Positions 8,685 to 26,356 of a stretch of 54,762 nucleotides of DNA are shown piece after piece. Location: positions 1 to 54,762 of the forward strand of contig CAZNJA010000001.1 in the NCBI GenBank assembly GCA_964573245.1, read 5' to 3'. The stretch's first letter is position 1. Each line of letters starts with the position of its first letter. A program made the translations under genes and the position numbers. Origin of the DNA: an uncultured bacterium (GTDB lineage Bacteria > CAIJMQ01). The notes under the pieces are model-generated. The model had not been told where the DNA came from and searched no databases. It saw nothing but the letters and a program-made list of their open reading frames with translations.

Positions 8685-9728
8685 TCATCCTGCATCCTTC
8701 GTAATTAAAAGCTCTGCTATTTGGACAGCATTCAAAGCTGCACCTTTGCGCAGATTATCCGAGACAATCCACAAATTCAGCCCGTTTTCGATAGATTCGT
8801 CTTCTCTTATTCTACCTACAAAGACCTCGTCTTTGCCATCGCAGTCAAGTGCTAAAGGGTAAACAGAAGACGCAGGATTATCAATCACTTTTACCCCAAG
8901 AGCACCGCTTAGAATATTTTTTGCTTCTTGAGCCGAGAGCTTCTTTTCGGTTTGTATGTTTACTGCTTCGGAATGACTTCTAAATACGGGAACTCTCACA
9001 CAAGTTGCGGTAACGGCAAGTTCTGGCTCTTTCATGATTTTTCTGGTCTCGTTAACACATTTCATCTCTTCTTTTGTGTAATCGTTCTTTTCAAATACAT
9101 CTATATGAGGAATAACGTTAAACGCTATTTGAGCAGGCAAAACTTTTTCTATATTTTGGGTGTTTTTATAGTTAAAATTTTCTCTTGAGGCAATTGATTT
9201 TATTTCCTCTATCAATTGCTCGACTGCTTCTTTTCCCCATCCTGAAACGGATTGGTAAGTGCTAACTACAACTCTTTTTATTTTAGCTGCATCGTGGATA
9301 GGTTTCAAAACGACAACGAGCTGAATGGTTGAACAGTTAGGATTAGCTATTATCCCTTTATGCTTTAATGCTTCTTCGGGATTTACCTCCGGAACTACCA
9401 AAGGAATTTCAGTATCCATTCTCCATGCGCTTGAATTGTCTATTACAACCGCACCGTCTTTAGCGGCTATCGGCGCGAATTTTTTGCTTATAGTCGCGCC
9501 TGCGGAAAAAAGAGCGATATCTATGCCTTTAAAAGAGTTCTCATCAAGAACAATTACATCTATTTGTTTCCCCTTAAAAGATACTTGTCTGCCTGAAGAC
9601 CGCTCGGAAGCAAGAGGCAAAAATCTATCGACAGGGAAATTCCTCTCTTCAAGCACTTTTGCCATTTCGATGCCAACCACACCGGTGGCACCTACAACAG
9701 CTATATTGTATTTGTTTTTTCTAATCAT
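8685..9728 (-). CDS. asd: Aspartate-semialdehyde dehydrogenase
   Basis: 347-aa ORF with N-terminal VVGATGVVG (NAD(P) binding) and the active-site motif IIANPNCSTI. Confidence 0.95.
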   Translation of the reverse strand: MIRKNKYNIAVVGATGVVGIEMAKVLEERNFPVDRFLPLASERSSGRQVSFKGKQIDVIVLDENSFKGIDIALFSAGATISKKFAPIAAKDGAVVIDNSSAWRMDTEIPLVVPEVNPEEALKHKGIIANPNCSTIQLVVVLKPIHDAAKIKRVVVSTYQSVSGWGKEAVEQLIEEIKSIASRENFNYKNTQNIEKVLPAQIAFNVIPHIDVFEKNDYTKEEMKCVNETRKIMKEPELAVTATCVRVPVFRSHSEAVNIQTEKKLSAQEAKNILSGALGVKVIDNPASSVYPLALDCDGKDEVFVGRIREDESIENGLNLWIVSDNLRKGAALNAVQIAELLITKDAG

Positions 9729-9734
9729 AGCTTG

Positions 9735-9856
9735 CCCCGTTAGAGATTAACTTTAAAATTGTTTATATACAATTAACCCATATTAAAAACAATAAGATTG
9801 TATTTCAAGCTCCCCATAAGAAACAGTCGTCTAATGACGACTTATCTCTAACGGGG
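9735..9856 (-). repeat. 122-nt multi-hairpin element closed by a 13-bp stem, directly upstream of asd
   Basis: CCCCGTTAGAGAT (9735-9747) pairs perfectly with ATCTCTAACGGGG (9844-9856). Inside are three small hairpins (AATTGT/ACAATT, ACAAT/ATTGT, GTCGTC/GACGAC). The 3' arm in asd sense ends 7 nt before the asd ATG. Confidence 0.6.
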
Positions 9857-9894
9857 TGGACGAATTTTATCAAAACTTCCGAATAATTACAAAA

Positions 9895-9923
9895 TTGATT
9901 ACTAAAGATGACGTTGCTATAAT
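9895..9923 (+). promoter_or_regulatory. Near-consensus sigma-70 promoter with extended -10
   Basis: TTGATT (9895-9900), a 17-nt spacer, then TGcTATAAT (9915-9923). It lies 19 nt upstream of the truncated tRNA-Gln copy. Confidence 0.6.
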
Positions 9924-9942
9924 CTTGGTTCAAAAGACAAAT

Positions 9943-9978
9943 TGCCCGGTGGTGTAATCGGTAACACGCAAGATTCTG
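9943..9978 (+). pseudogene. Truncated tRNA-Gln copy (positions 1-36, through anticodon CTG)
   Basis: Coordinates 9939-9978 are identical to 10313-10352, the 5' flank plus 5' half of the intact tRNA-Gln. After a 64-nt insert, the sequence CTGGATCT (10043-10050) matches tRNA positions 34-41, then similarity ends. Confidence 0.8.
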
Positions 9979-10042
9979 CCATGAACCACATCGAAGATGG
10001 ATTCATGGCAGCCCTGAACTGAACTTTGTTCTAGTTCACGGG
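9979..10042 (+). repeat. CCATGAACC-type two-hairpin element inside the truncated tRNA anticodon
   Basis: Hairpin 1 is (CTG)CCATGAA..TTCATGG(CAG). Hairpin 2 is CCCTGAACTGAAC..GTTCTAGTTCACGGG. It has the same design and ends as the element at 10389-10445, and CTG lies on both sides. Confidence 0.55.
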
Positions 10043-10058
10043 CTGGATCTCTTAAATA

Positions 10059-10331
10059 TTGGCTAAAATGTATTATGTTTATATTCTTTGGAGTAAAATA
10101 GATCAAAAGTTTTATATTGGATATACAGCTAATTTAGAAAGAAGATTGCAAGAGCACAAAAATAAGAAAGCATATTCTACGTCACGATTTCATCAGCCTG
10201 AGCTTGTATTTTTTGAGGCTTTTGCTTCAGATAAAGATGCAAGAAGACGAGAAAAGTATTTTAAGACTACTAAAGGTAAAAAAGCTTTAAAGTTGATGTT
10301 AAGAGAAACTATAAATTGCCCGGTGGTGTAA
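10059..10331 (+). CDS. Small GIY-YIG nuclease-domain protein (UPF0213/COG2827-like)
   Basis: 90-aa ORF with YYVYILWS..KFYIGYTANLERRLQEH (GIY...YIG block) and R/E-rich downstream motifs. It starts at TTG 10059 or ATG 10068. The last 5 codons and the TAA stop lie inside tRNA-Gln. Confidence 0.75.
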   Translation: MAKMYYVYILWSKIDQKFYIGYTANLERRLQEHKNKKAYSTSRFHQPELVFFEAFASDKDARRREKYFKTTKGKKALKLMLRETINCPVV

Positions 10332-10391
10332 TCGGTAACACGCAAGATTCTGGATCTTGTTTTCCTGGTTCGAGTCCAGGCTGGGCAGCCA
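10317..10391 (+). tRNA. tRNA-Gln (anticodon CTG), CCA encoded
   Basis: TGCCCGGTGGTGTAATCGGTAACACGCAAGATTCTGGATCTTGTTTTCCTGGTTCGAGTCCAGGCTGGGCAGCCA has a U1-A72 acceptor as in E. coli tRNA-Gln, anticodon loop TTCTGGA and T-arm CCTGGTTCGAGTCCAGG. Confidence 0.9.
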
Positions 10392-10445
10392 TGAACCAGA
10401 ACAAAGTTCGGTTCATGGCCCTAAACCTTACGTGGTTTTAGGGCT
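10389..10445 (+). repeat. CCATGAACC-type two-hairpin element abutting the tRNA-Gln 3' end
   Basis: CCATGAACCAGAAC-aaa-GTTCGGTTCATGG followed by CCCTAAACC-ttacgt-GGTTTTAGGG-CT. Its first three bases are the CCA end of the tRNA. Confidence 0.55.
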
Positions 10446-10600
10446 AATTCTAAAACTAAGAGTAAAAAATTTATCCCGAAGCGTGCGAAGTAAATTATGG
10501 AGTGAAACGACAGAATTTACGAGCGTTTACGCAAGGGACATTATGCTAAGTTATTTGCATTGCTTCTAAAGAAGGATTTTGTTAGTATGATGTCACTTAT

Positions 10601-11110
10601 ATGGATAAGAAGAATGTTCCTCTTATAGTTGGGATAGCTATTCCCATCTTAATGATTCTTTTTGTTGCAGCCAGTATCTACCTGCCAGGATTATTTGCTC
10701 CATCCCCTAAGTATAACTTTTTATATATCACAGGTGGAGATTACCGAAATAGAGACATTTATTCGGTTAACAACAGTAGATTGGTAAGGAATGACATTAA
10801 GTATCCTGAAAATAATTCCCCACGTAGTAACCCAAAACTTTTTTTACATGATACTGTAAAAAATGACAGTAGAGAAATATCTTTTGAAGATGCTCAGAAA
10901 CTTGCTGTAAATTCAAATCGTATCTCTCCCGATGGCTTTGAAGTTATTCGAGGGGATTATTATTATGACTTTACCTCACTTTTTTTTGGAGGAGGGAGAA
11001 ATTATCGAACATGGTATATCAAAGGTCATAATACATCCAAAAAATTAAACCTTCAAACAGATAGTTATTCCTACTACCATACTTATTTTATTGCGTGGAT
11101 AATGGATTGA
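10601..11110 (+). CDS. Hypothetical membrane-anchored protein
   Basis: 169-aa ORF with one N-terminal TM (VPLIVGIAIPILMILFVAASIYL) and a Y/N/R-rich extracytoplasmic part. I recognise no motif. Confidence 0.5.
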   Translation: MDKKNVPLIVGIAIPILMILFVAASIYLPGLFAPSPKYNFLYITGGDYRNRDIYSVNNSRLVRNDIKYPENNSPRSNPKLFLHDTVKNDSREISFEDAQKLAVNSNRISPDGFEVIRGDYYYDFTSLFFGGGRNYRTWYIKGHNTSKKLNLQTDSYSYYHTYFIAWIMD

Positions 11111-26101: not shown

Positions 26102-26356
26102 TTATTTAGCATTTTTAACTAATCTCTCTTTCTGCGCTCTTGTTAGTTTCTTTATTCTAATCTCTTCTAGAACAGCTTTCTTGGAATGTTTATATTCTTT
26201 ATACCATACCAATTTAACAGGTTTTCTACTTCTGGTGTATTTCGCGCCTTTTCCGTCATTATGCAGTTTAAGCCGTTTTTCCAAATCATTCGTGTAACCT
26301 GTGTAATAAGTGCCCTTACTACACTCAACGATGTACACATAGTACTTGTTTTTCAT
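26102..26356 (-). CDS. Small GIY-YIG nuclease-domain protein (second copy of the family)
   Basis: The start is set at MKNKYYVYIVECSKGTYYTGYTNDLEKRLKLHN (GIY-YIG block). A TAATG stop/start overlap links it to the upstream hydrolase gene. Confidence 0.75.
   Translation of the reverse strand: MKNKYYVYIVECSKGTYYTGYTNDLEKRLKLHNDGKGAKYTRSRKPVKLVWYKEYKHSKKAVLEEIRIKKLTRAQKERLVKNAK

Follow-up and report, generated by a model that had tools for sequence, protein, structure and literature searches.

A minimal GIY-YIG nuclease gene with a double hairpin inserted in a tRNA-Gln gene of an uncultured bacterium: a candidate selfish cassette of bacterial tRNA genes

The stretch of DNA analysed here, referred to throughout as the window, comprises 54,762 nucleotides (nt) of an uncultured bacterium (contig CAZNJA010000001.1, positions 1 to 54,762, of the metagenome assembly GCA_964573245.1). 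Between positions 9895 and 10445 lies a short gene for a GIY-YIG nuclease, wedged between a broken and an intact copy of the gene for a glutamine transfer RNA, tRNA-Gln(CTG), and a pair of hairpins interrupts the broken copy. The features of this locus, including its open reading frame (ORF) and a hairpin further on that serves as the right-hand marker of synteny, are the following.

9895–9923, plus strand: sigma-70-like promoter TTGATT-17-TGcTATAAT, upstream of the tRNA fragment
9939–9978, plus strand: left copy of a direct repeat, a 4-nt leader (AAAT) followed by tRNA-Gln fragment 1–36 (9943–9978)
9976–10045, strandless: double hairpin module in the anticodon loop, past tRNA position 36, located by an inverted-repeat search
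9976–10011: first hairpin, inverted repeat CTGCCATGAACC...GGATTCATGGCAG
10009–10045: second hairpin, inverted repeat CAGCCCTGAAC...GTTCACGGGCTG
10043–10050, plus strand: continuation of the tRNA, positions 34–41 (CTGGATCT), after which the fragment ends
10051–10067, plus strand: leader of the nuclease gene, 17 nt, without a strong Shine-Dalgarno sequence
10068–10331, plus strand: ORF of the GIY-YIG nuclease, 87 residues, predicted catalytic domain only, Slx1/UPF0213 type (PF01541)
10313–10352, plus strand: right copy of the direct repeat, AAAT plus tRNA 1–36, doubling as the 3′ end of the ORF and as part of the intact tRNA
10317–10391, plus strand: intact tRNA-Gln(CTG), 75 nt (ARAGORN; Rfam RF00005, 60.3 bits)
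10388–10445, strandless: hairpin pair CCATGAACC... and CCCTAAACC... abutting the tRNA 3′ end, with no ORF attached (repeat search and RNA folding)
10474–10538, strandless: long imperfect hairpin TCCCGAAGCG...CGCAAGGGA (also given as TCCCGAAGCGTGCGAAGTAAATT...GAATTTACGAGCGTTTACGCAAGGGA)

The direct repeat is exact over 40 nt (9939–9978 = 10313–10352), namely the 4-nt flank and tRNA positions 1–36, and extends to 47 nt at 94% identity (9932–9978 versus 10306–10352); a BLAST search of the tRNA against the genome returned the left fragment as identical at 36/36 positions. The right copy runs on into a complete tRNA-Gln(CTG), on whose boundaries ARAGORN and Rfam agree and which is the only glutamine tRNA with a CTG anticodon that ARAGORN found in the whole genome assembly. 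The left copy is broken at the anticodon, where a 64-nt insert consisting of the two hairpins separates tRNA position 36 from CTGGATCT. The best sigma-70-like site in a scan of 9700–10650 is the one at 9895–9923, with 10 of 12 matches and an extended -10 element, and that scan found no comparable plus-strand site between it and the intact tRNA. The same promoter stands before tRNA-Gln(CTG) in three relatives (below), and the predicted site in the window is the ancestral tRNA-Gln promoter. As the 5′ part of the tRNA was duplicated, and not the 3′ part, the intact tRNA is cut off from its own promoter.

An earlier note on this locus had reported the repeat, the complete right-hand tRNA, the break at the anticodon with its resumption at 10043–10050, the promoter kept by the left copy and the want of one at the intact tRNA, all of which were borne out; it had overlooked the hairpin module, which proved to be a constant part of the cassette. 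Where it placed the last five codons and the stop of the ORF inside the intact tRNA, four codons (C-P-V-V) and the TAA do lie in the acceptor stem and D-arm, with the stop in the D-loop; the fifth codon is located in the 4-nt repeated flank. Its estimate of about 260 base pairs (bp) for the captured unit was too small: with the hairpins included, the insert measures 334–374 bp.

Whether related genomes hold empty sites was read from the DNA next to asd, the left neighbour of the locus (aspartate-semialdehyde dehydrogenase, opposite strand), which was located in eight relatives. This genome is designated G000; G001 and G003 belong to the same genus, and G004 to another genus of the same family. 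In G004 the same promoter stands 19 nt upstream of an unbroken tRNA-Gln(CTG) and directly adjoins it, and the tRNA is followed by a long imperfect hairpin like that at 10474–10538. G001 and G003 also carry the promoter and an unbroken tRNA-Gln(CTG), with other inserts between the two, and the GIY-YIG gene and the tRNA fragment are both absent from the syntenic site in all three genomes. Since promoter and unbroken tRNA are found together in three relatives, it is the window that carries an insertion; the capture of a GIY-YIG gene with a duplicated tRNA 5′ part, as the earlier note had framed it, thus stands, and no relative was found to have the duplication without the nuclease gene.

The long imperfect hairpin at 10474–10538 is conserved downstream of tRNA-Gln(CTG) in G000, G003 and G004 and downstream of tRNA-Gln(TTG) in a further genome, G002, and has no match in Rfam. 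G002 provides the reciprocal case: a hairpin and GIY-YIG cassette lies 3′ of its tRNA-Gln(TTG), within a 22-nt direct repeat, and the syntenic site in G000 (contig C81) has no cassette. The G002 cassette adjoins a palindrome that is not part of a tRNA, having been inserted at the 3′ edge of the long imperfect hairpin with duplication of the 22 nt. Within the genus, the copy number of the nuclease subfamily is patchy (0, 1, 4 and 6). As for the other inserts between promoter and tRNA, the one in G003 is about 125 nt long and different in sequence, and the one in G001 (L046:3065–4008) is about 800 nt long and encodes a zeta-toxin-like P-loop ATPase and a small second ORF, resembling a toxin-antitoxin pair; the gap between promoter and tRNA looks like a hot spot of insertion.

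The nuclease matches the PF01541 profile over residues 1–71 with 61.9 bits (cut-off 22.6; E = 7e-17), and Y5, Y16, G18, R26, H30 and E62 are invariant across 12 homologues of its subfamily. The AlphaFold model, with a predicted local distance difference test score (pLDDT) of 84, has a beta-beta-alpha-beta-alpha-alpha order (strands 2–9, 14–20 and 45–52; helices 23–31, 55–65 and 68–78), and the four C-terminal residues that are encoded by the tRNA are disordered in it. Among proteins of known structure, the sequence matches 1ZG2 (E = 8e-17), 1YWL (5e-14), SLX1 (7e-6) and I-TevI (0.014), and a Foldseek search with the model ranked 1ZG2 first, Slx1 nuclease domains second to ninth and I-TevI seventeenth. 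By sequence and predicted fold, it is a nuclease reduced to the catalytic domain that belongs to the Slx1/UPF0213 branch and not to the I-TevI branch. It looks functional, because the catalytic residues (Y, Y, R, H and E) do not vary, the fold is confidently predicted and the copy number is patchy. A 2006 survey placed these proteins in an Slx-1 cluster, with tRNA-gene context unmentioned, and took a fusion with a TrmH-like methyltransferase to suggest that prokaryotic Slx1-like proteins may have a role in RNA metabolism (PMC1564403). Membership in a defence system was considered and rejected: the PADLOC matches (E >= 2e-4) were weak and confined to the GIY motif, as were matches to a phage library.

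Seven GIY-YIG matches were found in this genome: UvrC, a YhbQ-like protein (26105–26356), a divergent protein on contig C30, and four members of a subfamily of about 85 residues with the consensus YYVYIL.S.KD..FYIG.T. Three of these four abut a tRNA gene (Gln in the window, Val on C14, Ser on C23). The subfamily was then surveyed with a 5-sequence alignment in the genomes of about 185,000 species, which yielded 80 loci from many phyla. An intact tRNA lies within 300 nt in 34/80 loci, and on the same strand in 33 of the 34; the rate expected by chance, estimated from 40 tRNAs per 1.46 megabases, is about 1–2%. tRNA fragments are present as well in 14 of the 34 linked loci, and where the ORF precedes the tRNA its stop codon falls within the tRNA or no more than 14 nt from it in 12 of 14 cases. 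By clade, linkage to tRNA genes is found in 34/49 rows of one clade versus 1/32 in its sister clades. Some copies of the subfamily contain in-frame stops. The earlier note had named an absence of family-wide tRNA association as a reason to give up its idea, and the opposite was seen; to its question whether other GIY-YIG copies also abut tRNAs, the answer is yes for the window protein's own subfamily and no for the gene at 26105–26356, which belongs to another one. That gene, on the minus strand, overlaps an alpha/beta hydrolase gene at the latter's stop codon (TAATG), and no tRNA linkage was seen for its YhbQ-like subfamily in the sampled genomes, nor for a 95-residue type with the motif NPxWxDLY.

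The nearest homologues reach only 64–69% identity with the window protein, and the three of them with usable context, L134 (69%), L136 (65%) and L137 (64%), belong to cassettes at tRNA-Gln(CTG) genes whose flanking genes are mutually unrelated. The order of parts in these three is that of the window: a tRNA-Gln fragment, a double hairpin of CCnTGAACC type, 5–8 nt of tRNA, a short leader, the ORF and an intact tRNA-Gln(CTG). In related cassettes the leader from the tRNA remnant to the start codon is about 13–19 nt. For a tRNA split in a loop into parts A and B, the general layout can be written A - [hairpin - 5–8 nt of B - 13–19 nt - ORF] - A′ - B. A fourth homologue, L138, sits at a site without a tRNA; it keeps the double hairpin upstream, and its ORF ends in what is apparently a decayed tRNA-Gln 5′ end, cut by a hairpin in the same manner. 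With the same architecture recurring at other loci in the genomes compared, its origin by chance is excluded.

Several loci depart from this layout in ways that are recorded here in their own right. The fourth member of the subfamily in this genome (L002:1400–1900; C27:11351–11851) has a permease-like gene on either side and no tRNA in its vicinity; it is enclosed by inverted repeats that are nested, CCCCACACCTT / AAGGGTGTGG and AAGATGCGGGATT / AATCCCGCATCTT, and followed by the hairpin GAAGGTGCGGGGTGAACCCCGCACCTTC. The second tRNA-linked cassette of the genome (C14:12662–13618; L006:913–1870) begins with a tRNA-Val fragment carrying an insert of about 70 nt in the D-loop and continues with an array of at least three tandem 108-nt tRNA-Val fragments whose anticodon arm is replaced by CTCCGACGTAACGTCGGAG, with a gap of N inside the array. 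An intact tRNA-Val(GAC) follows, then the GIY-YIG ORF 8 nt on (ARAGORN end 13235, ATG 13244), and finally a degenerate copy whose last portion matches the tRNA 3′ part (positions 44–75) exactly. A similar array occurs in a culturable isolate, Melioribacter sp. Ez-97 (L131:1911–2725), where five tandem 99-nt fragments of tRNA-Cys, each with its own leader and with tRNA positions 39–56 replaced by the hairpin CCCGCCTTAGGCGGG, precede an intact tRNA-Cys and a GIY-YIG gene. At C10:26280–26460, a tRNA-Ala(CGC) is followed 74 nt on by a partial copy with TCCCGACGTTACGTCGGGA for its anticodon arm and then by an exact tRNA 3′ part; with no nuclease gene nearby, this partial copy may be the relic of a lost cassette. 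Two further members (L013:1501–2238 and L012:1486–1743) either continue in frame into a type IV prepilin leader (MKRFLSLTG|FTFLEI) or have it as their end, which indicates that, beyond tRNAs, cassettes also occupy the 5′ ends of protein-coding genes that are conserved.

The hairpins are a constant component of the cassette. In the predicted RNA, the two hairpins of the window fold with the residual anticodon stem as a three-way junction (z = -4.4), and L134, L136 and L137 have this two-hairpin module at the corresponding place. The distance from hairpin to start codon is near-constant at 20–25 nt in homologous cassettes. On a tree of 94 proteins, built from an alignment of 80 columns in which few nodes are resolved, the type of hairpin tracks the nuclease clade and not the identity of the tRNA: stems of xxTGAACC type go with a clade that occupies Gln, Leu, Cys, Gly, Asn, Glu and Ala tRNAs, and other nuclease clades have palindromes of CGCCCCGC or CTCCGCCCAAGG type. 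The hairpins of the Gln clade are edged by CTG/CAG and lie at the CTG anticodon, at a CTG of the anticodon stem (L137) or past the 3′-terminal CAG. The hairpins past the intact tRNA of the window (10388–10445) are related to the pair inside the fragment, and related hairpins are also found at the tRNA-Gln(CTG) 3′ site in G001 and G003 and not in G004; such solo hairpins, with no ORF attached, are found at the 3′ ends of tRNA-Gln genes in G000, G001 and G003 and elsewhere in these genomes. A structured search counted about nine related hairpins in G000, including three at the present locus; the output of a looser motif search was largely noise. Exact TGAACC...GGTTCA hairpins number 4, 7, 17, 9 and 1 in G000, G001, G002, G003 and G004, respectively; set against nuclease copy number in these five genomes, the counts are at most suggestive of a relation, and G001 has hairpins but not the nuclease.

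Evidence of movement as a unit comes from two bins (L101 and L128), which have in common a block that is 96% identical between flanking genes that are 73–79% identical. The block consists of a tRNA-Ser(TGA) leader, tRNA 1–12, a 30-nt palindrome, tRNA 13–18, a 19-nt leader, the ORF and the start of the tRNA. The DNA flanking the block is inverted between the two (L101:1455–4023 versus L128:2270–4050), and the position of the breakpoints at the edges of the block hints that cassettes promote local rearrangements. Taken together, the comparisons of genomes show, at the level of sequence, an insertion that recurs at tRNA genes, travels as a hairpin and an ORF with tRNA-derived flanks, and keeps the tRNA of its host intact.

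What such a unit might be is a question of interpretation, and we consider it probable, though well short of assured, that the window carries a selfish, homing-type cassette that preserves its target, tRNA-Gln(CTG). Three parts make up the cassette: the double hairpin, the minimal GIY-YIG gene and a 3′-terminal copy of the initial 36–41 nt of the tRNA with a leader of about 4 nt. As the comparison of sites shows, the cassette entered the anticodon loop and left the original tRNA 5′ part, with its promoter, as a dead fragment; the 5′ part belonging to the cassette now joins the old 3′ part to form a complete tRNA, so that the host keeps its tRNA. Nuclease gene and tRNA would be read as a single transcript from the displaced tRNA promoter, and co-transcription with release by RNase P fits the absence of any other promoter. 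Cleavage by RNase P at position +1 of the tRNA would deprive the message of its stop and of the four codons before it; maturation of the tRNA would for this reason compete with nuclease synthesis and keep the nuclease low. The enzyme would break unoccupied tRNA genes, or hairpin-bearing sites beside tRNA genes, and the break would be repaired from an occupied copy, with the flanking tRNA-derived segments acting as portable arms of homology. The same product could be reached by other routes, through a circular copy integrating by a single crossover within the tRNA 5′ part or through cuts staggered so widely as to leave a long duplication of the target. Cleavage, transcription, transfer and mechanism, that is, every step past the insertion itself, are what we infer from the arrangement. 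The label of homing endonuclease given in the earlier note suits the presence and absence among relatives and the tRNA target; it does not suit the protein, which is devoid of a DNA-binding domain of the Seg type.

A number of observations speak against a homing-type cassette. Without a DNA-binding domain, the recognition of tRNA genes by the protein is not accounted for. An intact and presumably cleavable tRNA gene is regenerated beside the nuclease gene, an outcome that classical homing endonucleases avoid. The closest homologue is just 69% identical. The copy in the window bears no trace of recent transfer, and one pattern scan of metagenome contigs for empty and filled alleles gave no empty allele. 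G001 keeps hairpins of this family, yet has no such nuclease. tRNA identity clusters weakly on the nuclease tree (30 changes versus a null of 33.5 +/- 1.3; 8/300 shuffles as low). Fragment and tRNA are identical within each genome (36/36 in G000, L134 and L136) although tRNA-Gln varies between genomes, and the repeat takes in 4–7 nt of local leader; both facts fit local target duplication or gene conversion better than the import of donor arms. The 22-nt repeat of non-tRNA sequence around the G002 cassette likewise favours a local process, and the L101/L128 block and the tRNA remnant in L138 favour imported tRNA arms.

The main rival to the selfish homing-type cassette holds that the hairpin module, akin to repetitive extragenic palindromic (REP) sequences or miniature inverted-repeat transposable elements (MITEs), is the true mobile and recognised entity, with the GIY-YIG gene as its rider or as a structure-specific enzyme. 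Cuts would fall beside hairpins or cruciforms and would not follow tRNA sequence; tRNA genes would be struck because their arms and loops present structures similar to the hairpin ends or short CTG/CAG matches to them. We hold this to be unlikely on the whole, with a share of probability that calls for attention. It draws on the co-variation of hairpin type with nuclease clade whichever tRNA is occupied, the near-constant spacing to the start codon, the CTG/CAG edges of the Gln-clade hairpins and their placement, the solo hairpins, the cassettes at non-tRNA sites in G002 and L138, and the structure specificity of the nearest characterised relative, Slx1. It is weakened by G001, whose seven such hairpins without a subfamily nuclease show that the dependence is not strict, by the total of about nine related hairpins in this genome, few for an active repeat family, and by the duplicated tRNA 5′ part, which a hairpin alone does not explain.

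The remaining alternatives are of lower probability. The protein could be a resident of DNA repair or RNA metabolism, linked to the tRNA for the sake of co-expression, with fragments and hairpins as unrelated debris of tRNA loci prone to recombination. The same-strand linkage and tight fusion to the tRNA would suit such co-expression; the conserved catalytic residues and the RNA-metabolism role suggested for prokaryotic Slx1-like proteins (PMC1564403) also count in favour of a resident protein. The gene is nevertheless absent from the syntenic sites of three relatives, ranges from 0 to 6 copies within one genus, occupies many different tRNAs, has in-frame stops in some copies and lies in a 96%-identical block between flanking genes of about 75% identity, and the fragments break regularly at the hairpin; a housekeeping role is improbable. 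More improbable still is a scar, that is, the remnant of an integrase island at a tRNA-Gln attachment site or a decayed tandem tRNA duplication into which an ORF has drifted. Partial tRNA duplicates are a classic signature of integrase insertion, and a large serine recombinase gene adjoins the tRNA-Gln of L134. In the window, however, no recombinase lies between or near the repeats, which enclose just 334 nt, and what is duplicated is the 5′ end of the tRNA instead of the 3′ end. Four genomes, moreover, agree in break point and layout, which random decay would not produce. An integrase-borne island at the tRNA was accordingly rejected, the only ORF between the repeats being that of 87 residues and the repeat being tRNA 1–36 with a 4-nt leader; a group I intron in the anticodon loop was rejected as well, because a complete tRNA follows and not a 3′ exon, and because Rfam returned no intron match in 9700–10650 (E <= 1). 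Least probable of all, to the point of being negligible, is that the duplication is an artefact of assembly. The genome is a metagenome assembly in 110 contigs, and contigs do break at other loci of tRNAs and cassettes (the N gap in C14; C23 and C16, which end at tRNA-Ser). A separate metagenome contig of the Joint Genome Institute (L140), the sole one returned by the pattern scan mentioned above, is nonetheless 100% identical to the window across 8690–10676 and so over the whole structure, and the same architecture appears in independent assemblies of other samples. Given the identity of L140 and a repeat of merely 40 nt, an artefact is unlikely as judged from the sequences compared.

A more far-reaching proposal is that the selfish cassette represents a new class of mobile element, in which a GIY-YIG nuclease reduced to its catalytic domain is guided by a nucleic-acid partner and not by a protein domain. 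We put this forward tentatively, as an idea that is rather doubtful at present. In its main version the enzyme may bind the clade-specific hairpin, as a DNA hairpin or cruciform, and cut a fixed few nucleotides away; a cut at a fixed distance would explain the constant tRNA remnant of 5–8 nt. In a bolder version, which has at best a slim chance of being right, the transcript of tRNA 1–36 with the two hairpins would be the guide and scaffold for cutting matching tRNA genes. If true, the idea of a nucleic-acid partner would give the small UPF0213/Slx1-like proteins a function and would describe a programmable minimal nuclease.

To our knowledge, small stand-alone GIY-YIG proteins of the UPF0213/COG2827 type are among the commonest bacterial proteins without a known role. 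The present analysis suggests that one large subfamily of the UPF0213 type behaves as selfish DNA in tRNA genes, with tRNA-gene DNA, hairpins or both as the candidate substrate. The same design recurs at tRNA genes over many bacterial phyla and is, as far as found, undescribed: a search of the literature in the searchable library yielded SegB and mitochondrial cases and no description of small GIY-YIG cassettes in bacterial chromosomal tRNA genes. The window contributes a clean comparison of filled and empty sites in which the promoter has been preserved, together with a clade that is specific for tRNA-Gln with the CTG anticodon. The occupation of an essential gene would be of an unusual kind, in which nothing is spliced, a spare piece rebuilds the gene and the tRNA comes under read-through of the nuclease message. 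Such elements would account for many puzzling features in the genomes of uncultured bacteria, namely fragments of tRNAs, pseudo-tRNAs in tandem arrays and breaks between contigs, and may also drive rearrangements of tRNA loci. Were specificity to come from a hairpin or an RNA, an enzyme of 87 residues would be of practical interest.

By analogy, the closest known system in behaviour is SegB of phages T4 and T6. SegB is described as a GIY-YIG homing endonuclease whose gene stands free within the tRNA cluster of the phage; it cuts the tRNA region of a relative lacking the ORF and is copied in by repair (PMC2330249). A recent report describes SegB as promoting segmental amplification of tRNA loci (PMC13096335). 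The two systems have in common a GIY-YIG gene among or beside tRNA genes that is present or absent between relatives, and the amplification of tRNA loci recalls the tandem arrays of tRNA fragments at some cassettes. They differ in that SegB is carried by a phage and has a DNA-binding region, whereas the protein described here is an 87-residue, catalytic-only member of the Slx1/UPF0213 group in a bacterial chromosome; its cassette also lies inside the tRNA gene, which is restored by the duplicated part, and has the hairpin module as a constant companion. In sequence and fold, the best matches are the YhbQ-like UPF0213 proteins BH0048 (1ZG2) and EF2693 (1YWL), which have the same minimal domain; these two are uncharacterised, however, with no assigned role or genomic behaviour. 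Eukaryotic Slx1, in turn, requires Slx4 and has a domain of RING/PHD type, and the Slx1-Slx4 complex cleaves branched DNA in a structure-specific manner.

Other likenesses concern the architecture. Islands integrated in tRNA genes by tyrosine or serine recombinases are also bounded by direct repeats of tRNA parts and also regenerate one intact tRNA, but the present insert has no recombinase, is 334 nt long and duplicates the 5′ part and not the 3′ part. Among hairpin-based mobile units, REP/REPIN elements with their RAYT transposases and integron cassettes with attC hairpins resemble it in pairing a short imperfect palindrome with one dedicated enzyme, or a single ORF with a hairpin site; the enzyme here is a GIY-YIG nuclease, in contrast to a HUH transposase or a tyrosine recombinase, and its action on hairpins is putative. 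Finally, free-standing GIY-YIG ORFs of mitochondria, such as that at atp6 of Allomyces, insert at the ends of genes and bring a replacement for the segment that they displace. The target stays functional there through the incoming copy, and the old part persists as a pseudogene fragment, as at the tRNA-Gln gene of the window; the fungal mitochondrial cases involve protein genes and larger nucleases and have no hairpins, whereas here it is the 5′ part of a tRNA that has been duplicated.

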